Position numbers and translations under genes: made by a program. From the UHGV virus genome UHGV-0119636: DNA of 27,711 nt, one strand, 5' to 3'. Shown here in pieces: positions 1 to 18,348 of this stretch. The notes under the pieces were generated by a model. That model was not told the DNA's origin. It ran no database searches and saw only the letters and a list, made by a program, of their open reading frames with translations. Within the stretch, counting starts at the first letter, position 1. Each line of letters opens with the position of its first letter. The stretch is from a virus.

Positions 1-1854
1 GCTTTTAATCGCTTCAAAATTTACCATTTTATCTTCTCCTTTCGTCGGTAAACCAGAGCTAATCGTTGCGATGGGCAAATCATTACACTTTGTAAGTTTT
101 CTTCGTAATGAGCTTTTACCCGTGAACACTTTCACTTCGATGTGGTCGTCATAAATACGACTCAGTTTTTTCACATCTCCCGTATAAATATAATGAAGAT
201 GAATACCTCCACCACTTTTGCTTAACTCAGCATATGTTGGAGGCCATTTACTAGCTGCTTCAAGATTCTTCTCGAAACATTTATTACCATTCTCGTCCTT
301 AATATCAAAGTCAATAACTACATGATTTTCAGGGACCTTGACGTAATGAAGTTTTGATGTGTCAAGTTCTGATAGGGTAGTTGAAACTTCATCCCATGGC
401 TTCGTCGGAGTTTCTTTTGAAGTAGCATATTGAGCTGGACAATCAGAACATTCTTTATCAAAAATAGACTCCTGTTCTTCAAATATAAGCCAGCTCTCAG
501 TTTTCTCATCTCCAATAGGTTTCTCTGCTTTAACCTTTTTCTTCCCACCAATAGAGTCTTCGAAAATATCAGTCTTAAAACCGTCGTAATAACTCAGCAG
601 CTTACTTCCATCTTCTTTCTCCACCTTCTCATCAAATTCCAAAAAATAGTTTCTCAACTCGTCTTTGAATTTTGTCTTAGAAAATGGATACGGCACTTTT
701 GCTTCCTCACAGTAGTTTTTATACATCTCCCATGCTGCTTTTAGCGTAGTACCATCTTCTTTCTTGAAGACACTGAATGAATCACATACGAAGTTATAAA
801 AGTCATTAGAAGCCATAAGCATGTCCTTCGGAGCGTAAGTATCGTAATACTCTGGATCTTCTTTAAAGACTTGTAAACAATGATATGCGATTGCTCCCAA
901 CTCAAAATCAACCTGTTTGGTCAATCTACGATATTCTCGAATCGGTATCTTGTTTCCAGTAGGACGAACGTCAATCAAACGCCTTAGTAAACCAGACTTA
1001 GCATCAGTGATCTTAACAGGTGTGTTTGTACCCATAAATAAAAAACATTTGAATCTTGTTTCATATTGTCCTTTAAATTTTTCATTCATGGTCATTATCT
1101 CGTGTGAAATCACCGAGTTTAAGCGCGTATTATCTTCGATTTTTGATAAATCACCATCATGTTGTATCGCTACAAGAGGGTTATTCTTAAACGGTTCCAG
1201 AGCGAAAACATTATTCGGATTACCCAAAGCTTTTGCGTCAAAAGAACAACAATATCCTTCAAATAATTTCTCGATAATATTTATGATAGTTGATTTACCA
1301 GTACCACCAGCTCCGTAAAGCACCAGGAACTTTTGAAGTATTTTTGATTCCCCAGATACAACGGAGCCGATAGCCCATTCTATTTTACGTCGTTCTTCTT
1401 CGGAATATAGAGTACCGATGAGTTTATCCCATGCAGAAATATCGCCAGGTTCGAGAGGATACGGGAGTCTCTTGCTTGCGAAATTCTCTCTGCTTAATTC
1501 TGTGTTTGAAAATATAAGTTCATCATCGAGTACAGCAAAGTTATCACGCATCTGTTTCTGACAATATTTATGGAACTTATCGATTGAGCCACTGTCAGCA
1601 TCCCACATATACTTAATTACAGGAGTACCTTCAAGACGTCCTTCATTTTCAGCGACATATCTATCAAGTTCTCTATCTACAAGACGGGTTACATCGTCTT
1701 CATCTGTACTCCACATCTTTCGATCTTCATCCCAGATAGCGTAAAAGTCCCTACCTCGAATCATGAGATCTTTAGATTTCAACATTTTGAACTTAGGAGA
1801 AACATCAACACTGCTTTTATTCGTCTTCGTTGATACTGTCATGAAGTCCAACAT
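1..1854 (-). CDS. Replication protein, P-loop NTPase with primase-polymerase-like motifs (partial, continues beyond window start)
   Basis: Open minus-strand frame runs from ATG at 1854 off the left edge (618 codons). Walker A motif LYGAGGTGKST; later VIDFDIKDE and SGGGIHLHY resemble primase-polymerase catalytic motifs. SD AAGGAGG lies 11 nt upstream of the ATG. Confidence 0.7.
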   Translation of the reverse strand, partial: MLDFMTVSTKTNKSSVDVSPKFKMLKSKDLMIRGRDFYAIWDEDRKMWSTDEDDVTRLVDRELDRYVAENEGRLEGTPVIKYMWDADSGSIDKFHKYCQKQMRDNFAVLDDELIFSNTELSRENFASKRLPYPLEPGDISAWDKLIGTLYSEEERRKIEWAIGSVVSGESKILQKFLVLYGAGGTGKSTIINIIEKLFEGYCCSFDAKALGNPNNVFALEPFKNNPLVAIQHDGDLSKIEDNTRLNSVISHEIMTMNEKFKGQYETRFKCFLFMGTNTPVKITDAKSGLLRRLIDVRPTGNKIPIREYRRLTKQVDFELGAIAYHCLQVFKEDPEYYDTYAPKDMLMASNDFYNFVCDSFSVFKKEDGTTLKAAWEMYKNYCEEAKVPYPFSKTKFKDELRNYFLEFDEKVEKEDGSKLLSYYDGFKTDIFEDSIGGKKKVKAEKPIGDEKTESWLIFEEQESIFDKECSDCPAQYATSKETPTKPWDEVSTTLSELDTSKLHYVKVPENHVVIDFDIKDENGNKCFEKNLEAASKWPPTYAELSKSGGGIHLHYIYTGDVKKLSRIYDDHIEVKVFTGKSSLRRKLTKCNDLPIATISSGLPTKGEDKMVNFEAIKS

Positions 1855-2065
1855 TCATCTTATGGCCTCCTTTCATTTTTTTAATATATGATTCTAATGT
1901 TTCATAGCACCAGTCATAAAAATTATGGTAAGTAAAAACAAAATCCGAGCCGCTTTTTATGCGAACTCGGACACTATCTTTACCGTTGGGGAACCAGTCT
2001 TCTACATGAATTGCAATTTCCGGAAATTGTTTGCTAAATTGTTTATATACATCTTCGTGCTTCAT
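1817..2065 (-). CDS. Hypothetical protein, 82 aa
   Basis: ORF with SD AGAGGT upstream; its 3' end overlaps the start of the NTPase gene in another frame. Confidence 0.5.
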   Translation of the reverse strand: MKHEDVYKQFSKQFPEIAIHVEDWFPNGKDSVRVRIKSGSDFVFTYHNFYDWCYETLESYIKKMKGGHKMNVGLHDSINEDE

Positions 2066-2074
2066 ATCTTACCT

Positions 2075-2629
2075 CTAAACAAAAGTATCTAAATACCATA
2101 ACATTTGAATCCAGATTTCAAATTTACGTAAGTCATGATCGCAATTCTTAACTCTGAATAATCCACCGCGGCCGTCGGGTTCATATTCACGTTTGAGAAA
2201 TGTGTTGATCACTTCTCTAACATACTTTTTATCAAACCTGGAATCATACATACCGCCCAAACCGAGATTTACGATCATCTTCCAGAACCATTGTCCTGTT
2301 CTATCGCCGACACTCGGATCGTCCATAATATCTTCGCAACGAATTGCAAGAGCTATTATCATTTCTAGGATACTACATGGACGAGATAACATATCGACGA
2401 TAACTTCTCGGCTTTCAGGGCTGTATATTTCATAAGCAAACCGACTTCTCAGATTTTCTCCGTCAGTTTCTCTGTTCTCATCTTTTGGGATGCTGTATCT
2501 GAATTCAATCTCATGTAAATATTCCAAAAGCTTTTTATATGAATTTGCTTTGGCATATCTACCACTGCATACCAGATTATACATCCACTCGAAATATTCT
2601 ATCTCAATTTCAGTCCTCGTCACCGCCAA
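2075..2629 (-). CDS. Hypothetical protein, about 184 aa
   Basis: ORF track; the listed start is TTG, a GTG two codons in has better SD spacing. Start uncertain. Confidence 0.5.
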   Translation of the reverse strand: MAVTRTEIEIEYFEWMYNLVCSGRYAKANSYKKLLEYLHEIEFRYSIPKDENRETDGENLRSRFAYEIYSPESREVIVDMLSRPCSILEMIIALAIRCEDIMDDPSVGDRTGQWFWKMIVNLGLGGMYDSRFDKKYVREVINTFLKREYEPDGRGGLFRVKNCDHDLRKFEIWIQMLWYLDTFV

Positions 2630-3203
2630 CTACCTCGCTGTAACTTCCGTAATCTCTAAGGATTTCGTAATATGACTTAAAATTAGGATTTTTGATATAC
2701 ACAGTATCGTCTTCATACTCTCCGAAATGGGAAGCGAAATCCTCTCCTACCATCTCGTCAATATTACCAATTATTCTGTCACGTTCATCCGCGAGCACTC
2801 CATCACCTTCATAATATGTCAGAGTGATCATCGGATAATCCTGCTCCCATGTCTCTTCTGGAGCAATTACTTCAGGTCCGCCCATGTCATCTGCTTCCTC
2901 CTTTTCTTTCTCTTTCATAGCCTGCTCGTTAATATAACCGAGCTCCTGTACTTTATCTCTGATTTCCTGAACAGTAAGTTTATCCGGATTTTCAATACCA
3001 TCTTTTAAACCTTCCGTTAAAGCCTCTCCAACTTTTTTACAAGCTTTGCTCTCAGAATAGCGATCCCTAAGGAATTCATTCTCTTCGGTTTTGTCAGCAA
3101 TGATCTGCTCGTACTTGGTTTTAACTAACTTCCATGTTACTACCGAACCGATTGCACCTCCAGCTAAGAATATCATTCCTTTAATTAATAAATTCTTGTT
3201 CAT
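2610..3203 (-). CDS. Membrane-anchored acidic protein, 197 aa
   Basis: Strong SD GAAAGGAGA before ATG; N-terminal hydrophobic helix IFLAGGAIGSVVTW, then a strongly acidic remainder. Confidence 0.6.
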   Translation of the reverse strand: MNKNLLIKGMIFLAGGAIGSVVTWKLVKTKYEQIIADKTEENEFLRDRYSESKACKKVGEALTEGLKDGIENPDKLTVQEIRDKVQELGYINEQAMKEKEKEEADDMGGPEVIAPEETWEQDYPMITLTYYEGDGVLADERDRIIGNIDEMVGEDFASHFGEYEDDTVYIKNPNFKSYYEILRDYGSYSEVVGGDED

Positions 3204-3215
3204 TTGTTTCTCCTT

Positions 3216-3413
3216 TCACTCAGAGTATATAAGTTCGTACTCACCGCTATCATTTTGTTCCTCGTTTGGATCAGTCTTTACCGATAACACCGTCACTGCT
3301 AGTCCACCGAATAACAGTGAAATACTCATAAGAATCCCTCCTGCGATATGACGTCTTTTCTTTGTATTTAACGAATGGTCTATCATTGATAGAATTCTTC
3401 CGAGCTTCTCCAC
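3216..3413 (-). CDS. Small membrane protein, 65 aa, GTG start
   Basis: SD AAGGGAG upstream of GTG; hydrophobic segment GGILMSISLLFGGLAVTVL. Confidence 0.45.
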   Translation of the reverse strand: MEKLGRILSMIDHSLNTKKRRHIAGGILMSISLLFGGLAVTVLSVKTDPNEEQNDSGEYELIYSE

Positions 3414-3432
3414 TTATATCTCTCCCTTTGTT

Positions 3433-3561
3433 TTATTTAGTTGCTGTTGTAGTTTTTAAAATATGCGAATTCCCCTCAATAGGATGAGTAAGAATCATAA
3501 GTCCACTGACAAAACAAATCCCAGCAATAGTGGCAAACGTAATTGATAACTTTTCTTTCAC
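3433..3561 (-). CDS. Possible small membrane protein, 42 aa, GTG start
   Basis: Found by hand, below the ORF-track size cut-off; weak SD AAAGGA; hydrophobic core FATIAGICFVSGLMIL. Confidence 0.3.
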   Translation of the reverse strand: MKEKLSITFATIAGICFVSGLMILTHPIEGNSHILKTTTATK

Positions 3562-3809
3562 GTTAAGTCAGTCCTTTCATTCTTTTCGAACGGATTTGGT
3601 TGCAACGCTAAAACAAAGTAGTCATCGACGATTTTAGCACCTTTTACTTTGCCGATTTCAATCATTGCTTTAACTGTTGCAGTTCCACAATTCCATCTCA
3701 CAGCTGCTTTTTCTGCTGAGATAAATAACGGCGTAAGATTCTGACTGAATAACTCTTTGTCTTCCAAACCGTTCTCCAAAATATAAATGATTAACTCTCT
3801 ACCGGTCAT
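3558..3809 (-). CDS. Hypothetical protein, 83 aa
   Basis: ORF track; start overlaps the stop of the upstream small ORF (ATGA). Confidence 0.5.
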   Translation of the reverse strand: MTGRELIIYILENGLEDKELFSQNLTPLFISAEKAAVRWNCGTATVKAMIEIGKVKGAKIVDDYFVLALQPNPFEKNERTDLT

Positions 3810-4064: not shown

Positions 4065-5003
4065 TCAAATCATGTTGAGAATATCCCCATCCACATTGAA
4101 ATCAAGAAGAATAGTTCTCTCATAACCGTTCACGAAGTTACGATTTGCCTCGTTGTAAGTGTTATAGATTCCGAAATCTACGAAATTATCACCTACTGGA
4201 TGTTTCTCGTCATAAATCCATCCAACAATCTGACCTGCCTGTGTACGCGGGATTCCGAGCATATCATATACTTCATTCAGGAACAGATGACCTTTCGTTT
4301 TCAACATGTCATTTGCATAACGCTGCTGATCTTTAAGGAACATTAGATTGAATTCAGGATCTTTAGTCCATCCTGTACATCCATCATCGAAGAATTTAGC
4401 ATAATCGCTGTAACTGTCGAGAGTTGCTACATTTGCTGTTTTCTTAACAGTAGTTTCTGTACCATCTTCATTTACAACAGTCTCTTCGATTTCTTTTGCT
4501 TTGATGTTGTACTTCAGTTCTTTATCAAGCTCTTCACCAAATCTCTCAATAACACGACCACGATATTCCTTGAAGCCTTTGTCAATAGTTGCATAAGCGG
4601 CTGCAAGTGCTAAGTTACGTTTACGAAGAATATGATGACCACTAAGAATAGCAGCGATAGAAACTGTTCCAAGGATTACTGCTGGAGCATAAAGTTTTGC
4701 TACCTTTACGGCTGTTTGAGTATACATGATAGTTAAATCTTTCTTACCATCTTCTTCTGTGTACTCTTTACCTTCTGGAACCATATCTGGATTTTCCATA
4801 AATTCATGAATTTTCTCGATTTTTTCTTTTGGCTCAGCGAGCACCTCATCGAGTTTAGTAGTTGCTTTACATGCCATTACAGCAGAGCCAACTACACCAA
4901 CAATACCTGCGCCAACCAAGATTTCAGGGCTATGCTTTTTAAATTTAAAACCTACACGATGGAGGCTTCTAGTTACTGTGTTCATAATTTCTAATTTTGC
5001 CAT
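4065..5003 (-). CDS. Two-helix membrane protein, paralog family member A, 312 aa
   Basis: SD AAAAGGAGAG; N-terminal SPEILVGAGIVGVVGSAVMACKAT, second hydrophobic helix, RNLALAAAYA motif and conserved C-terminal domain shared with the genes at 7078-7905 and 9366-10133. Confidence 0.7.
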   Translation of the reverse strand: MAKLEIMNTVTRSLHRVGFKFKKHSPEILVGAGIVGVVGSAVMACKATTKLDEVLAEPKEKIEKIHEFMENPDMVPEGKEYTEEDGKKDLTIMYTQTAVKVAKLYAPAVILGTVSIAAILSGHHILRKRNLALAAAYATIDKGFKEYRGRVIERFGEELDKELKYNIKAKEIEETVVNEDGTETTVKKTANVATLDSYSDYAKFFDDGCTGWTKDPEFNLMFLKDQQRYANDMLKTKGHLFLNEVYDMLGIPRTQAGQIVGWIYDEKHPVGDNFVDFGIYNTYNEANRNFVNGYERTILLDFNVDGDILNMI

Positions 5004-7077: not shown

Positions 7078-7905
7078 TTAATAGTAGCTATCGAAACCAT
7101 ATTCCGGAGGCATCAGATGATCAATAACAATACACGGTTCATTATCTTCCGTAATTTGAGCACTATATCTCACATCGATTTTGCCTTTATCGATTCTCCA
7201 ACCGATGCTATTACCAACTTCGGTATGCTTAAGACCAATTTCGTCATAGAAATCATTCAGAGAAATATACATCTCGTTACCGTTGATCATTCTCTCATTA
7301 AGAGTAAGAACAGCATTTTTAATCTTGTCGATATCCGATCTGAAATATCTGTCGGAATGACTGTCATAACACAACGTGTTACCTTTACCTGTCATGATAA
7401 TCTGAGTGTCTGCAACCGGATGTTCTTCAACTTGCTTCTTAGCGACTTTATCTCTGATGTTATTTTCCTTCTTCTCTCCGATAGTCTCTACCACTTTCTC
7501 TCTGTAGTCAGACAGTGCTGTTGTAGATAACTGATATGCTGTTGCCAATGCTGCGTTACGTCTTACATGTACGGAATTAGCACCGATAAGACAAGCGACT
7601 GACGCAATGCCAGTGATAGCTGCTGGAATATAAGGTTTCCAAGCTGCTTTTACTGTTTCGACAGGTGTGAGATTTAAAGCGTTTCTTTCGTCTTCTTCTG
7701 TGAAAATACCGCCTTCATGAGCTTCTTTCTCTTTAAACTTCTTCTCTTCCTCGATTAACTCCATAGCTTTTGGTGTTGCTTTTACTGCAAGCACAACAGT
7801 AGATATCATACCTGCGATACCAATGCCAGTAAGAATTTCCGGACTGCGTTTTTTCATTACATATTTTGCAGTGTTTAAAAATTTTGTTACATTTGGTTTG
7901 TTCAT
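7078..7905 (-). CDS. Two-helix membrane protein, paralog family member C, 275 aa
   Basis: SD GAAAGGAGA; SPEILTGIGIAGMISTVVLAVKATPKAMELIEEE N-terminus almost identical to the 9366-10133 gene; conserved C-terminal domain. Confidence 0.7.
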   Translation of the reverse strand: MNKPNVTKFLNTAKYVMKKRSPEILTGIGIAGMISTVVLAVKATPKAMELIEEEKKFKEKEAHEGGIFTEEDERNALNLTPVETVKAAWKPYIPAAITGIASVACLIGANSVHVRRNAALATAYQLSTTALSDYREKVVETIGEKKENNIRDKVAKKQVEEHPVADTQIIMTGKGNTLCYDSHSDRYFRSDIDKIKNAVLTLNERMINGNEMYISLNDFYDEIGLKHTEVGNSIGWRIDKGKIDVRYSAQITEDNEPCIVIDHLMPPEYGFDSYY

Positions 7906-7994
7906 TTTTTATCTCCTTTCATGAACAGTTAAATTGTTTTTACCAAAAATCCCACTCGGGAAAATTTTGATCTTGAAAAAATAGAAATCGAAAA

Positions 7995-8066
7995 GAAACA
8001 GTGTAGGACTCGAACCCACAACCTACAGATATAAGTCTGTTGCTCTACCAATTGAGCTAACTGTTT
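7995..8066 (-). tRNA. tRNA gene, anticodon probably UAU (Ile), with an unusual anticodon arm
   Basis: Hand fold: acceptor AAACAGT/ACTGTTT, D-arm GCTC-AATTGGTA-GAGC, T-arm GTGGG-TTCGAGT-CCTAC, 72 nt, no encoded CCA. The anticodon arm ACAGA-CUUAUA-UCUGU is 16 nt, one short of canonical. Starts 5 nt after the -10-like end of motif q. Confidence 0.65.
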
Positions 8067-8070
8067 CTTC

Positions 8071-8100
8071 TCATAATAGCGCTTGTAAATTTCGCGAATA
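8071..8100 (-). promoter_or_regulatory. Conserved promoter/operator-like element, copy q (drives the tRNA)
   Basis: Plus strand tcataatagcgcttgtaaatttcgcgaata. Confidence 0.55.
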
Positions 8101-9365: not shown

Positions 9366-10133
9366 TCAATACTCTTCGTAATCAATGAACGGCTCTGTGA
9401 AATCTACAATATAACATTCAATACCGTCGTCCATTTCTACTTTTGTATGGTGGAAATATAGCCAACCATCCCAGTACATTTCATACATCTGAGCTGCGGA
9501 CCAACCCATAAATTCACCGTAATCCTGTCGATCAATCTCTAGTAAATCGTAATAATCGTTTAAAGATGCACCACCGGATTGAGATAGCATTTTATTAATC
9601 TCATACTCTGCTCTCAATTGAGTTTCTTTCGTCACACGGTAATAACGTTTGGAATATTCATCGTAGAATAGTGTTTTGCCATCCTCGTATTCGTCGTCAT
9701 ATTCTTCTTTGTCTTCTTCCTCGTAATGGTCTTTTGCTACAGCAGCACGAATGAGTTTGTCTCCGTCTTCACCATATAACTTTTTAACTTTGTTTTTGTA
9801 CTCTTTGTGAGTTTGGTCTAGTAAGGCATAAGCAGATGCGATGGCTGCTTGGGAATGTTTGTTTAATAGATTCGCGCCAAATATGCAAGCTAGGGTTCCT
9901 GTTCCAATCAATAAGGAAGGAATATATGTTGGTCCTGCTACTCGAATAGTCTCCCATTTTGTTAATTCATCTCCTTTCTCTTCTTCAGCTAGTTCAATAA
10001 GTTCCATTGCTTTCGGAGTAGCTTTAACCGCCATTACAGCTGTACCTACCACTCCGGCAGCTCCTAATACTGTTAATATAGTAGAGCTGTTTTTCTTTAC
10101 GAATCTTTTCGAAACTGTTAGTAAGTCATTCAT
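9366..10133 (-). CDS. Two-helix membrane protein, paralog family member B, 255 aa
   Basis: ATG at 10133 with SD GGAG 10 nt upstream (ORF-track start at 10142 is GTG); N-terminus SSTILTVLGAAGVVGTAVMAVKATPKAMELIE; conserved C-terminal domain. Confidence 0.7.
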   Translation of the reverse strand: MNDLLTVSKRFVKKNSSTILTVLGAAGVVGTAVMAVKATPKAMELIELAEEEKGDELTKWETIRVAGPTYIPSLLIGTGTLACIFGANLLNKHSQAAIASAYALLDQTHKEYKNKVKKLYGEDGDKLIRAAVAKDHYEEEDKEEYDDEYEDGKTLFYDEYSKRYYRVTKETQLRAEYEINKMLSQSGGASLNDYYDLLEIDRQDYGEFMGWSAAQMYEMYWDGWLYFHHTKVEMDDGIECYIVDFTEPFIDYEEY

Positions 10134-10252
10134 TTCCAGCACGCTCCTTGGCGATAAATTTGGTAAAAATAAAAAGAGAAAGAAAAGAGTCAGCTTGTTG
10201 TGTAAACCAAGTCTAACTCAATTCTTTTTGTCATTATCCGAAATAACAATAT

Positions 10253-10506: not shown

Positions 10507-10682
10507 TTTGAACACTCCTTTAATTGGTTTTTGATAAAAATAAAAAGAGAATACAATGACTTCAGGGTCGGCCCAACGAAAACCGTTGCCCGGTGGGTAG
10601 CATGTTTTATTACGTTATTACGTGCCGCTACGCCTTCGTGTCTCACCACTGGATTTCCACCAGTATCTATCCATTGCTTTCT
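10507..10682 (-). other. Long GC-rich structured 5' leader between motif a and the acidic-protein gene
   Basis: About 175 nt without a convincing ORF; stem CAACG/CGTTG flanked by GGCC/CCCGG; possible 18-codon leader ORF with tandem Trp codons. Confidence 0.35.
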
Positions 10683-12010: not shown

Positions 12011-12038
12011 CTATAATAGAAGAGGTTTAAATCGCGCG
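12011..12038 (-). promoter_or_regulatory. Conserved promoter/operator-like element, copy g
   Basis: Plus strand ctataatagaagaggtttaaatcgcgcg. Confidence 0.45.
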
Positions 12039-12386
12039 TCTATCGAAGCAAGTTTCCCATCGTTCTCGCTTAACTGGCTTCATTTTCATAGTCCACATCA
12101 TTTGTCGGACCGTTACGGTGGGATATAAACCGTTCTCAGGTTCTCCCGATCTATCCTCGAAGAACTCCAGGAATCTTTCATGTAAATATAAAGTGTCTGT
12201 CAGCCACGGATCAATCTCGCCCCACCAGGTATTTTTCGTCGCTGGATCATATCGCTGCTGAATAACAGCTAGTCCTTTTCGTCCCATTTTGAATAAAGTA
12301 CATTTACTGTAAACTGGATGATCACATTCATAAGTTTCTCCGTACATCGATACATAAACTTTTGGCTTTTCGTAGTGATAACGCAT
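12027..12386 (-). CDS. Hypothetical protein, 119 aa
   Basis: SD GAAAGGA; a diverged motif-like element lies upstream (about 12411-12445). Confidence 0.6.
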   Translation of the reverse strand: MRYHYEKPKVYVSMYGETYECDHPVYSKCTLFKMGRKGLAVIQQRYDPATKNTWWGEIDPWLTDTLYLHERFLEFFEDRSGEPENGLYPTVTVRQMMWTMKMKPVKRERWETCFDRRAI

Positions 12387-12480
12387 ATTACTATTATCCT
12401 TTCTTTAACTTTAGTTATATAACTTTTGTTTAAACTCTCGCGTTAGGAAATATAAAAGAAGAAAAAAAAAGAAAAGACTA

Positions 12481-12560
12481 TGGGAATAGCGCGGGATTCG
12501 AACCCACGACGTTGAGTTTCCTCTTATTCTTCCATTAGAACTAACCGTCTTAACTATTCC
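12481..12560 (-). tRNA. tRNA-like gene with non-canonical body, possibly a Ser-type or degenerate tRNA
   Basis: Canonical T-arm GTGGG-TTCGAAT-CCCGC and 7-bp acceptor GGAATAG/CTATTCC, about 80 nt; no canonical D-arm or 17-nt anticodon arm found by hand; a GAGGAAACTC hairpin could be a variable arm. Confidence 0.45.
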
Positions 12561-12607
12561 AGAGACTTCTTCCGATATATTGCTATACGGGAATTGTTCT
12601 CTTCTTT

Positions 12608-12638
12608 TCTATAATAGGAAATGTTTATTTAGCGAAAG
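12608..12638 (-). promoter_or_regulatory. Conserved promoter/operator-like element, copy h (upstream of the tRNA-like gene)
   Basis: Plus strand tctataataggaaatgtttatttagcgaaag. Confidence 0.5.
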
Positions 12639-12679
12639 AAAATAGCCCAGGCGTTTAACCCGAGCTAATTCTCTTAAAC

Positions 12680-13048
12680 TTATTCGTTACCATTGAGTTT
12701 CTCAATAGCTTCAACCTTCCTGCTGTCAAACATCGTAGAATTTACAATACTCATCACAGCTTTGTAATATGTTTTCGGCTGATCCTTCTTGAGCAACTCT
12801 ATCGCCTGAACTTTACGACTATCAAACATGCTGCTGTTCATTATCGAAGCTACCGCACTGTCATAATCTGCTGTGCTAAATATATCCGCTAATAAATCAA
12901 CTTCATATGTGTCCTGTTTTCGTTTCTTTTCACGCAATACAACTGCCACAATTGGAATCGCAATACCAATCCCATTTGCTACATATTCTGTGATTTTCCA
13001 TAAACTCTCTTTTGTTTTCTCGCTAGTTAAAACTTCTTTGATTTTCAT
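12680..13048 (-). CDS. Membrane protein with two internal ~30-aa repeats, 122 aa
   Basis: SD AGGAGG; hydrophobic IGIAIPIVAVVL; repeats SIMNSSMFDSRKVQAIELLKKDQ and SIVNSTMFDSRKVEAIEKLNGNE. Confidence 0.6.
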   Translation of the reverse strand: MKIKEVLTSEKTKESLWKITEYVANGIGIAIPIVAVVLREKKRKQDTYEVDLLADIFSTADYDSAVASIMNSSMFDSRKVQAIELLKKDQPKTYYKAVMSIVNSTMFDSRKVEAIEKLNGNE

Positions 13049-16088: not shown

Positions 16089-16685
16089 ATGACAATAGGA
16101 CAAAAAATAAAAGAATTACGCAATCAACTTAATATGTCGGTGGATGATCTTGCTGTGAAACTGGGTAAGAACCGTGCGACTATCTACCGCTATGAACGAG
16201 GAGATATCGAGAACCTCCCTCTCGATGTACTAGAACCATTAGCAAATGCTCTTGAGACCACACCTGGTTATTTAATGGGATGGGAAGAAACTACGAAAAA
16301 GAAAGAGCCTTCAATTATCGATGAAGTTACCATGGGTGACGTTTTTAAAGCGTTACGTCTAGGAAGTAATTTATCGATAGAGGAATTTTCGCATGAGATT
16401 GGATTATCTGCCCAAGACATAAGCAATTATGAAGCAGGAAAGACTCCTATACCTGTAAATATAATTAATCTTGTTGCTGATTTCTTTGGCATATCAATAG
16501 CGGAAATAGTTAAGGCACACAAAAACAGCGAAAATAGAACGCCTTCTGGTTTCGAAATGAAAAAGGAACGATTTGAACGTTTTAAAGTTTGGAATAAAGA
16601 GTTTGGACGAATACATTTTACTGATGAAGAAATCAATAAAATAATGGAATATACAAGGTTCTTACTTAGCCAAAGAAGACAGTAA
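16089..16685 (+). CDS. Tandem-HTH XRE-family repressor-like regulator, 198 aa
   Basis: SD AAAGGAG; two XRE-type helix-turn-helix units (residues about 1-65 and 80-140); no peptidase S24-like C-terminus seen. Confidence 0.75.
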   Translation: MTIGQKIKELRNQLNMSVDDLAVKLGKNRATIYRYERGDIENLPLDVLEPLANALETTPGYLMGWEETTKKKEPSIIDEVTMGDVFKALRLGSNLSIEEFSHEIGLSAQDISNYEAGKTPIPVNIINLVADFFGISIAEIVKAHKNSENRTPSGFEMKKERFERFKVWNKEFGRIHFTDEEINKIMEYTRFLLSQRRQ

Positions 16686-16770
16686 GTCTACATAGGTTTA
16701 CTCTATTTAAAGGAGGTGATGCCTGAATTCAGTTCATCGTAGAATTTACATCAAAGGAAAGGTGGAACCA

Positions 16771-18348
16771 ATGACAACGTTTGATATGAACAACGCTGTA
16801 GACAATGCGTTCGGTATGGACGTATATGCTATCTATCTTCGGAAAAGTCGAGCCGATGTAGAAGCAGAAAAACTTGGAGAAGGAGAAACACTAGCAAGGC
16901 ATAGAAAGATACTAACAGAACTTGCTGCTAGAAAAGGATTGTATATCGGTAAGATTTACGAGGAAATTGTATCTGGTGAAACAATCGAAGCTAGACCTGA
17001 AATACAAAAACTGATAGAAGATTGTTATAAAGGGAAATATAGAGGAATCCTAATAGTAGAAGTTACTCGTCTATCTCGTGGTAATCAAGGAGACGCTCAA
17101 AAAATACTCGACTGTCTCAAATATTCGAATAGAAACAATGGTGTATTAGTTATCACTCCTACTAAGACTTATGACGTTGCACACAGCCAAGAAGACGAAG
17201 AATATATGGAGTTTGAATTGTTTATGTCTCGTCGAGAATATAAGATGATTCAAAAGCGTATGGATCGTGGCCGTAAACAAGCAGTCGTAGAAGGAAACTT
17301 CATGGGTAGTTACCGTCCCTATGGATATGACATCTTAAAAACCAAGACCGGACGAACACTTATACCGAATGAAGATGAAGCTCCTATCGTGAAAATGATT
17401 TACGAATGGACAGTTAACGATAATTTATCTCCTTTCAAGATAGCTGAGCGTTTAACTAATATGGGTGTTCCTACTTATTATGGTGAGAAGGATTGGTCTA
17501 AAGAAACAGTTAAAACCATTTTGACGAATCAGACATACATGGGTAAAGTTCGTTGGAATGATCGAATGACTGTTAAGACTATGGTCGACGGAGAACTTAA
17601 AGCTACACGACCTCGTTCAAATCATTCCGATCACTTCATGCTATATGATGGAAAACATATGAAACACGCACTCGTCGACGAAGAAACATTCAAAGCAGCC
17701 TCCTCTCGCTTTCATAACGATAGGACAAGATCAAATCTAAAACTTGTTAATCCTCTTGCAGGACTTCTATTTTGTAAGAAATGTGGTAAATCTATGGGTT
17801 ATCAATCATATAGACATAAGAAAAACGGACCAATGGATCGATACAATCATAGACAGTCTGCTAATGGATGCAAGGTTAAGTCAGCAGTTGCTGAGGATGT
17901 TATAAAAGCTGTTATACATGCTTTGAAACTTTATATAGAAGATTTCGAATTTAAGTTAGACAACACTCCAGATGTTGACGAAAATTCAATCAATACGCAG
18001 CTCGAAGCTTTACAAAAAGAAATACGAAAATCCGAACGAAAACTTGCTAAGCTATTCGATTCTTGGGAAGATGAGAAGATAACAGATAATGAATTTGTTC
18101 AAAGGAAAGCCGTCCATAATCAGAAGATAGAAAATATAAAGAGGCAAATGGAAGAACTCGAATATTCGATACCAGAAAGAGAAGAATATGAGGATAAAAT
18201 AATATTGCTGTCTGAAGCACTTGTCGCTATCACAGACGAATCGCTTGACGCAGATATTAAGAACGAGTATCTTAAAAGAATCATTGATAGAATAGAGTTT
18301 AGTAGAGAGAATAACTCAGAGTTTATACTAGATATAGACTTATGCTAA
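16771..18348 (+). CDS. Large serine recombinase (integrase-type), about 525 aa
   Basis: ATG at 16771 after AAAGGAAAGG (track start 16762 is GTG); N-terminal YAIYLRKSR catalytic-serine region, Cys-rich zinc-ribbon CKKCGK...C, C-terminal coiled coil. Confidence 0.8.
   Translation: MTTFDMNNAVDNAFGMDVYAIYLRKSRADVEAEKLGEGETLARHRKILTELAARKGLYIGKIYEEIVSGETIEARPEIQKLIEDCYKGKYRGILIVEVTRLSRGNQGDAQKILDCLKYSNRNNGVLVITPTKTYDVAHSQEDEEYMEFELFMSRREYKMIQKRMDRGRKQAVVEGNFMGSYRPYGYDILKTKTGRTLIPNEDEAPIVKMIYEWTVNDNLSPFKIAERLTNMGVPTYYGEKDWSKETVKTILTNQTYMGKVRWNDRMTVKTMVDGELKATRPRSNHSDHFMLYDGKHMKHALVDEETFKAASSRFHNDRTRSNLKLVNPLAGLLFCKKCGKSMGYQSYRHKKNGPMDRYNHRQSANGCKVKSAVAEDVIKAVIHALKLYIEDFEFKLDNTPDVDENSINTQLEALQKEIRKSERKLAKLFDSWEDEKITDNEFVQRKAVHNQKIENIKRQMEELEYSIPEREEYEDKIILLSEALVAITDESLDADIKNEYLKRIIDRIEFSRENNSEFILDIDLC

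Follow-up and report, generated by a model that had tools for sequence, protein, structure and literature searches.

Transfer RNA (tRNA) genes of phages are usually explained by codon supply or, lately, by the replacement of host tRNAs that have been cut by defence nucleases. The antisense RNAs CI of phage P4 and C4 of phages P1 and P7 are cut from early transcripts by RNase P by virtue of their tRNA likeness, and act in trans by loop complementarity to sites in the same operon. RNA anti-CRISPRs and pseudo-ToxI are phage RNA mimics directed against host defences, and tRNA-Other of Bacillus cereus is an example of a pseudo-tRNA. YrlA and other bacterial Y RNAs, found also in phages, are non-decoding mimics of the D-arm, T-arm and acceptor stem of tRNA; some of them are cut by RNase P and given CCA, Yrn1 has an 'anticodon' loop of 6 nucleotides (nt), and YrlA lies next to the gene for Ro60 (TROVE), contains a Ro-binding helix and has a permuted order of arms (PMC4201824). 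The tRNA-like domain of transfer-messenger RNA (tmRNA) consists of the tRNA upper half (acceptor and T-arm) without an anticodon, in a molecule of ~350 nt that also carries the reading frame of its tag and is charged with alanine by way of a G3.U70 pair (PMC3929946). A catalogue of viral structured RNAs mentions tRNA-like candidates in gut phages in general terms only (PMC10690425). The element described here, with the 5′ to 3′ sequence GGAAUAGUUAAGACGGUUAGUUCUAAUGGAAGAAUAAGAGGAAACUCAACGUCGUGGGUUCGAAUCCCGCGCUAUUCCCA, lies on the minus strand at 12560..12481 of a 27,711-nt stretch of the virus genome UHGV-0119636 (the window), which is part of a temperate phage of gut Clostridia, and it has the upper half of a tRNA and no anticodon loop.

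Judging from its sequence and relatives, the element is a real, conserved small-RNA gene derived from tRNA, standing alone in the phage early region. That it is a derived, non-decoding member of a family under selection is very probable. The fuller interpretation, in which it is an early-expressed, non-decoding tRNA mimic that acts through the tRNA upper half, is moderately favoured, and a decoy role taken by itself is much less certain.

Two covariance models were used to map the element: R1, built from its five known copies, and R2, built from 30 distinct relatives (siblings) with the element left out. Both give the order acceptor 5′ strand, U8, a 9-nt insertion, A9, D-arm, A26, anticodon stub, variable loop, T-arm and acceptor 3′ strand (Table 1). 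The acceptor strands GAAUAG(U) and (G)CUAUUC form seven base pairs (bp), or eight with the flanking G:C pair, and stand on a T stem of five pairs, one of them a U.G wobble, that closes a 7-nt T-loop of the form UUCRANY, as in tRNA. The initial annotation, made from the window alone, had recognised this T-arm (GUGGG-UUCGAAU-CCCGC) and the acceptor stem (GAAUAGU/GCUAUUC) and had argued from them for tRNA origin; both helices stand, and the origin is borne out by R2, which matches the element end to end (model positions 1-72) at 38.1 bits with an E-value of 2.3e-8, the model E-values resting on a shortened calibration. Its broad option of a degenerate tRNA or tRNA-like element is likewise supported. 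The window has two copies of the T-loop core GGTTCRANTCC, where 0.06 would be expected; the other copy belongs to a further tRNA-like element at 7994-8067.

The initial annotation had been able to fit neither a 17-nt anticodon arm nor a canonical D-arm. The first observation was correct, for the place of the anticodon arm is occupied by the stub GAG-GAAA-CUC, with loops of 4-6 nt among the copies and no 5-bp stem with 7-nt loop, and because of this reduction the element cannot decode. A D-arm, GUUC-UAAUGGAA-GAAU, is nevertheless present at 12541..12526; it was overlooked because the insertion after U8 displaces it, the link between acceptor and D stem being 11 nt long as opposed to two nucleotides (8 and 9) in a canonical tRNA. 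In the predicted structure, GACG from the insertion and CGUC from the variable loop form a helix (pair probability 0.64-0.96) that would adjoin the site where nucleotides 8-9 and 44-48 meet in real tRNA. The insertion, AAGACGGUU, is identical at six of nine positions to the family acceptor 5′ strand plus U8, GAAACAGUU, and in homologue L086 it was aligned by R2 onto the position of the family acceptor 5′ strand; this resemblance hints at an origin by local duplication. An 84-nt stretch that contains the element has a folding energy of -24.2 kcal/mol (z = -2.95, with 0 of 200 shuffles equally stable), and its predicted fold consists of the acceptor helix, the T-arm and two small hairpins surrounded by the 4-bp GACG/CGUC helix. 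According to the list of open reading frames (ORFs) of the window, none of at least 40 amino acids (aa) overlaps the element. Features that tRNA-processing enzymes (RNase P, RNase Z, the CCA-adding enzyme) would require are seen in structural terms: acceptor and T stems stacked coaxially over 12-13 bp, a 5′ leader that is single-stranded, the lack of an encoded CCA and a U-rich trailer.

Pattern scans found homologues, and five distinct copies of the element are considered here, namely those of the window, L003, L084, L086 and L087. In the five-sequence alignment, standard pairs occupy 98.4% of the pair cells, versus 35-54% when the partners are slid by 1-3 columns. Three double compensatory changes were found: two in the T stem, which is AUAGG/CCUAU in L084 and GUGGG/CCCGC in the window, and one in the outer acceptor pair, which is G-C in the window and A-U in L086. 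Several further stem changes are one-sided and still compatible with pairing; L086 has CCCAC as the 3′ strand of its T stem and U.G in place of a U-A pair of the D stem. The copies of the window and L003 have three differences, two in loops and the third converting an inner acceptor pair from U.G to U-A. The body AAGACGGUUAGUUCUAAYGGAAGA is invariant across the copies, and the loop of the anticodon stub varies (GAAA, AAAA, GUAAAA, GUAAUA) while its stem is kept. The leader hairpin upstream of the body is kept in L003 and L087, is compensated in L084 (CUCC...GGAG, with the outer pair changed from U-A to C-G), and is absent from L086, where another RNA precedes the element.

The surroundings of the copies differ. 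Downstream of the element lies phrog_17256 in the window and in L003, whereas L086 has a consensus promoter there and then a different gene; in L087 a consensus promoter follows and the contig ends soon afterwards; and in L084 (region 853-3722) the element lies between an endolysin gene and a convergent serine integrase gene, a position typical of an accessory ('moron') module and the usual site of accessory genes expressed from a prophage. In L086 it begins 5 nt after another T-arm-bearing RNA, an arrangement like that of a tRNA operon. Because the gene contexts differ, the element is a module in its own right and is not tied to any single gene as its leader. A promoter-proximal RNA of ~115 nt with T-arm GGUGG-UUCGAGU-CCACC and an irregular body is found in L086 (820-945, minus strand) and L076 (~2060-2175, plus strand); GAGGAAACUC and GGAAGAAU are words that it has in common with the element, and according to ARAGORN it is neither tRNA nor tmRNA. 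The end of the L087 record (1-20) is a Nextera adapter, CTGTCTCTTATACACATCT, which is an assembly artefact in the public record.

Related loci, in the early regions of temperate phages of gut Lachnospiraceae and Oscillospiraceae, contain many tRNA-like elements situated directly after the same promoter motif and on the same strand. The alignment of the 30 siblings gives a cloverleaf in which 17 of 20 pairs have compensatory double changes (RNAalifold). R2 scores the homologues of the element at 30-45 bits and typical members at 57-88 bits, and in the reverse test R1 aligns siblings at 31-36 bits with the same mapping of arms. When IMG/VR loci were searched within 3 kb of the phrog_17256 gene, R2 identified 55 members in 52 of the 82 loci, all on the gene strand; prophages of cultured Clostridia proved to carry members as well when searched with R1. 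Of the 21 ARAGORN calls in related loci, 12 are 'tRNA-???' with 'anticodons' of two or four bases. Anticodon loops of 4-6 nt are common among the siblings, two have an 8-bp stem capped by GAAA or GAUA in place of the loop, others have insertions of 20-30 nt, and a few look like working tRNA-Thr (CGU in L041, UGU in L024). No description of such a family of phage tRNA-like RNAs was found in the open-access full-text literature.

The element shares with the siblings the promoter motif, the strand, the early region, the layout of T-arm, D-arm and variable loop, a non-decoding anticodon arm and a U-rich tail. It differs in its leader of ~45 nt with a hairpin, so that the body begins 50 nt after the -10 box (3-7 nt in the siblings, whose closing helix, GAG.../...CUC, is also extended and has a U-run behind it), in its 9-nt insertion, and in its 3-bp anticodon stub where siblings keep a stem of 4-5 bp. 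Taken together, these comparisons show that what is conserved in the family is the body of a tRNA, as opposed to the part that decodes, and that the element represents the far end of the family spectrum, with the same top half, the least anticodon arm, and a leader and insertion in addition. The other tRNA-like element of the window, 7994-8067, matches the Rfam tRNA model at 62 bits, is called 'tRNA-???' with a two-base anticodon by ARAGORN and has a 6-nt loop, CUUAUA; it too is probably non-decoding. The cultured and published Faecalibacterium phage FP_oengus has an unannotated member of the family (MG711463 2935-3006; L002 1748-1819) that ARAGORN calls 'tRNA-???' with anticodon 'ga' and R2 scores at 80 bits; it sits between two hypothetical genes.

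The element itself escapes the standard searches. ARAGORN makes no call for it in the window or in any homologue, and Rfam has no match to it at the gathering score; a scan of the whole window with the cut-off relaxed to E≤1 gave none either. The best local match is to tRNA-Sec (19.2 bits, E 0.3, gathering score 47) and covers the acceptor and T arms only; the match to the tRNA family (RF00005, gathering score 29) is below 19.2 bits and was dropped beneath the overlapping tRNA-Sec match. Local matches to tRNA-Sec, Vault and plastid leaders were rejected on the ground that they comprise the T-arm and acceptor stem only. The initial annotation had proposed searches of this kind together with a comparison of homologous loci, and had named the absence of a tRNA or Rfam hit, coupled with that of a discrete small RNA in expression data, as a reason to give up its claim. 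Formally the first half of that reason is present, but it is too strict, because the compensatory changes among the homologues and the family model show a real element. Two other candidate functions were rejected: the mini-ORF AUG-GAA-GAA-UAA in the D-loop is not conserved (AUG is ACG in L003 and L087), and the AAGAGGAAA that resembles a Shine-Dalgarno sequence, considered as a ribosome-binding decoy, is weakened in L003, which reads AAGAGAAAA. The locus has no megablast match in INPHARED, a sensitive blastn search of INPHARED with a 300-nt region gave only two short matches at chance level, and an exact 33-mer has no match in IMG/VR. At the homologous spot of MT835485 and FP_oengus, the two nearest phages that share the neighbouring gene, the element is absent.

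The coordinates of the element, of the transcription unit to which it is assigned and of its relatives are collected in Table 1. The long array of small early genes in which it lies is on the minus strand, and the motif TTCGC-N15-TATTAT, which precedes small genes, is found 10 times in the window, always on the minus strand and between 8073 and 14515, versus 1.06 copies expected; it is best read as the phage early promoter. The copy that serves the element had been named motif h in the initial annotation, which correctly placed the element about 50 nt downstream: the motif ends at 12611, and transcription would start near 12604. The upstream half of the motif is often a palindrome, TTTCGCGAAA, and the promoter possibly comes with an operator; the gap of 14 nt from TTCGCG to TATTAT is too short for a standard -35/-10 pair.

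Table 1. Coordinates of the tRNA-like element, its parts, its surroundings in the window, its homologues and selected siblings.
Feature	Record	Coordinates	Strand	Basis or remark
Upstream gene	window	13048..12680	-	closed by terminator-like hairpin
Terminator-like hairpin with T-run, upstream unit boundary	window	12643..12667	-	10-pair stem, 5 G-C pairs, then TTTTCTTT
Early-promoter motif TTCGCT-N14-TATTAT (motif h)	window	12611..12636	-	repeated motif
Leader hairpin UUCC-C-GUAUA-GCAA-UAUAU-C-GGAA	window	12570..12593	-	predicted fold; between promoter and body
tRNA-like body	window	12560..12482	-	unit order: terminator, promoter, leader, body, tail, next promoter-like motif
Acceptor stem 5′ strand GGAAUAGU (position -1 plus 1-7)	window	12553..12560	-	fold and homologue pair changes
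Base equivalent to U8	window	12552	-	directly after acceptor 5′ strand
9-nt insertion between U8 and A9	window	12543..12551	-	insertion in R1 and R2 model alignments
D-arm, stem GUUC/GAAU, 8-nt loop with G18, G19, A21	window	12526..12541	-	aligns to sibling D-arms
Anticodon-arm remnant A-GAG-GAAA-CUC-A, 3-bp stem, 4-nt loop, no anticodon	window	12513..12524	-	R1 and R2 alignments
Variable loop ACGUC, 5 nt, type I-like	window	12508..12512	-	aligns to sibling AGGUU
T-arm	window	12491..12507	-	sequence and homologue changes
Acceptor stem 3′ strand GCUAUUCC (66-72 plus C73), CCA not encoded	window	12483..12490	-	sequence and homologues
Pyrimidine-rich tail UCUUUUCUUUUUUUUUCUUCUUUU	window	12454..12476	-	probable 3′ end region, with putative termination or processing
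Variant promoter-like motif ACGCGAGAG...TATATAA	window	12415..12443	-	before next gene; assignment tentative because spacing differs from main motif
Next gene, phrog_17256	window	12386..12027	-	downstream of variant promoter-like motif
528-aa serine integrase and helix-turn-helix repressor	window	16089-18348 (integrase gene 16762-18348)	+	window gene annotation
Tail-fibre genes	window	beyond 19 kb		window annotation
Element copy L003 (= L083 = L085)	89-kb gut phage contig			
Element copy L084	IMG/VR UViG_3300045988_088338			
Element copy L086	JAEIGA010577998			
Element copy L087	OYWQ01016168			
Sibling with tetraloop stem or structured insertion	L061	3860-3938		
Siblings with tetraloop stem or structured insertion	L029	2061-2138, 3389-3478		
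Sibling with tetraloop stem or structured insertion	L077	3863-3955		
Sibling with tetraloop stem or structured insertion	L098	5195-5287		

If the element functions as a tRNA mimic, its RNA would be made early after infection or induction and would fold into a tRNA-like L-shape through contact between the GG of the D-loop and the T-loop. RNase P would be expected to remove the leader of ~45 nt at the acceptor 5′ end, a cut that is needed because of the leader in the window and the tandem arrangement in L086. The 3′ end might be set by RNase Z or by termination in the U-rich tail, and CCA, which is not encoded, may be added afterwards. The mature RNA would then act in trans through its upper half and its invariant body, and not by reading codons. 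The most likely role would be that of a mimic or decoy occupying a tRNA-binding factor of the host or the phage; candidate partners are a tRNA-targeting defence enzyme and a protein that processes or senses tRNA.

Several points weigh against this interpretation. The transcript, its processing and its action in trans are all inferred. The five copies found in total represent about four lineages, and their conservation could in part be due to recent horizontal spread; the exact body pattern is absent from 185,579 reference genomes. The GACG/CGUC helix, the D stem and the 3-bp stub are invariant or nearly so, and their pairing is a thermodynamic prediction that covariation cannot assess because the body is the same in all five copies. 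Searches of the proteins against Pfam, PHROGs, NCBIfam and Protein Data Bank (PDB) sequences recognised no tRNA-related enzyme encoded in the window. Finally, many canonical siblings directly precede a gene with no new promoter between, which fits a role in cis at least for those members.

That last point introduces a serious alternative, rather unlikely for the element itself, according to which the RNA is a promoter-proximal leader that acts in cis by termination or attenuation, by protection of the transcript end, or by offering RNase P or RNase Z sites that tune the downstream gene. In its favour, the closing helix of every copy, and of nearly all siblings, has a U-rich tract behind it; the siblings that stand between promoter and gene without a second consensus promoter often have a further terminator-like hairpin; and other structured, non-tRNA stretches hold equivalent promoter-proximal places in the window (10252..10163, z = -5.9). 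The purine-rich 5′ start of the transcript can also pair with the pyrimidine tail at the 3′ side, a predicted outer helix that is given little weight as both strands are of low complexity. However, the downstream partner of the element is not conserved, a consensus promoter stands between it and the next gene in L086 and also comes after it in L087, and in L084 no co-directional gene follows at all. An A/U-rich acceptor helix that closes a multi-branch fold is a poor intrinsic terminator, and the terminator scan made no call there; moreover, a terminator could do without a canonical T-loop, without GG in a D-loop and without covariation in D and T stems.

It is improbable that the element is a decaying pseudogene, a functionless remainder of some phage tRNA after loss of the anticodon arm and gain of an insertion. 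Rejection by the standard tRNA finders, the truncated anticodon arm, the apparent duplication of the acceptor 5′ strand in the insertion, and rarity (five copies) would all be understandable in such a relic. Decay would be expected in all arms, yet pairing of the acceptor and T stems has survived three double changes. The body is more conserved than the flanks, which are unalignable between the window and L084 or L086, and the promoter motif is kept before four of the five copies. Dozens of strongly covarying siblings, moreover, have likewise lost the anticodon loop selectively and kept their other arms.

A lead rather than a result, and of low probability, is that the element accepts an amino acid outside decoding, for instance as a histidine mimic, and thereby titrates a synthetase or feeds a non-ribosomal reaction. 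Bacterial HisRS recognises its substrates mainly by the pair G-1:C73, an identity element that is effective even in minihelices, and an acceptor helix of 8 bp with a -1:73 pair resembles that of bacterial tRNA-His. The window, L003 and L084 have such a helix with G-1:C73, and the same pair (alignment columns 1 and 79) is G:C in 26 of the 30 siblings. On the other hand, the -1:73 pair is A:U in L086 and G.A in L087, CCA is not encoded, and the extra pairs may merely lengthen the closing helix.

The initial annotation had counted a type II tRNA among its options for the element, with GAGGAAACUC as a possible long variable arm of the Ser type and GGA as a possible anticodon. That the finders have overlooked a working tRNA of type II (Ser, Leu or Sec) is now largely refuted and very improbable. 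The 8-bp acceptor and 5-bp T stem do produce the weak tRNA-Sec match, and a small hairpin does precede the T-arm; but the score of that match is far under the gathering score and reflects the acceptor and T arms only, and there is no place for a 5-bp stem with a 7-nt anticodon loop. In both model alignments the hairpin, a 3-bp stem with a tetraloop, occupies the anticodon-arm position, and the variable region is an ordinary 5 nt (ACGUC), so the element is not of type II; GGA is part of the D-loop and provides its G18 and G19. ARAGORN is silent on all five copies. Equally hard to credit is a fragment of a tRNA gene at the phage attachment site (attP) as the identity of the element. Although the L084 element lies ~80 nt past the 3′ end of the convergent serine integrase gene, a frequent place for attP, both acceptor strands and all arms are present instead of a 3′ tRNA piece alone, the window element is ~4 kb from its integrase gene in the early array behind its own promoter, and the integrases are serine recombinases, which typically do not target tRNA genes.

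The proteins encoded around the element have matches only to domains of unknown function (DUF6353, DUF3310, DUF2958, phrog_17256) in the four collections named above, and to no enzyme of RNA metabolism. The gene of phrog_17256 has relatives in FP_oengus and in prophages of Lachnospiraceae and Oscillospiraceae, including those of [Ruminococcus] torques ATCC 27756, Hungatella hathewayi WAL-18680, Enterocloster lavalensis and Cuneatibacter caecimuris, and ACGCGAGA is found upstream of the homologous gene in MT835485 as well. Three paralogous DUF6353 (phrog_2152) genes are located in one early region of the window (4065-5003, 7078-7905 and 9366-10142, minus strand), and two of the three come after a promoter and a structured RNA. 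Only a few bases separate the promoter motif 8098..8073 from the start of the tRNA-like element at 7994-8067, which is upstream of the DUF6353 gene 7905..7078; the non-coding stretch 10163-10252, promoter-proximal and with two hairpins, is just before the DUF6353 gene 10142..9366. In related phages, tRNA-like RNAs are often directly upstream of DUF6353-like genes, as judged by N-terminal sequences and not by domain scans. Another promoter-proximal stretch of ~137 nt, 10546-10682 on the minus strand, has paired 5′ and 3′ ends followed by a U-run and an ordinary folding energy (z = -0.7); neither it nor 10163-10252 has a match in Rfam.

The family is of interest in that it is under clear structural selection for a tRNA body and discards the anticodon loop; the element goes furthest in this respect, and fits neither codon supply nor replacement of cut tRNAs. 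If the RNAs are made and bound by host factors, the conflict between phages and abundant bacteria of the human gut would involve RNA mimics of a new kind. As a tentative proposal, on the doubtful side, the temperate phages of gut Lachnospiraceae and Oscillospiraceae may possess an unrecognised class of early, non-decoding tRNA mimics that use the elbow and acceptor end to occupy immune enzymes directed at tRNA, or machinery that senses tRNA, and so serve RNA-based counter-defence or host takeover; the element might then, just as tentatively, be the extreme form of the class, with its anticodon stub and extra core helix. The cultured strains listed above have prophages that carry siblings, and the question is therefore directly testable. 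Meanwhile, because such elements are missed or are reported as 'tRNA-???' or as tRNAs with odd anticodons, tRNA counts and arguments from codon usage are unreliable for these phages.

Among known systems, a canonical phage tRNA (RF00005) resembles the element in its acceptor stem, GG-bearing D-arm, 5-nt variable loop, UUCGAAU T-loop and location on the phage gene strand, whereas the element has no anticodon loop, has nine additional nucleotides after U8, is below the Rfam threshold, draws no call from ARAGORN and supplies no codon. The upper half is common to the element and tmRNA; the size, the tag frame, the G3.U70 pair and the detection by ARAGORN are those of tmRNA alone, for the element has A-U as its 3:70 pair, no kept tag frame and no ARAGORN tmRNA call, and tmRNA was rejected as an identification. 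In comparison with YrlA, neither a Ro60 gene nor a Ro-binding helix nor an Rfam match to Y RNA was found; the 20 window proteins scanned with Pfam, some small ORFs being outside the scan, include no TROVE domain. In comparison with the C4 and CI RNAs, there is no Rfam match, and complementarity to places outside the locus in the 27.7 kb of phage amounts to two 11-nt matches, where ~1.5 would be expected by our own estimate. RNA anti-CRISPRs, pseudo-ToxI and tRNA-Other share only their logic with the element, that of a non-coding copy that keeps the features recognised by proteins and not the normal function. On the basis of these comparisons the element is placed outside the tRNA, tRNA-Sec, tmRNA and Y RNA families and is assigned, from sequence and predicted structure, as an atypical member of the phage tRNA-like family defined here.

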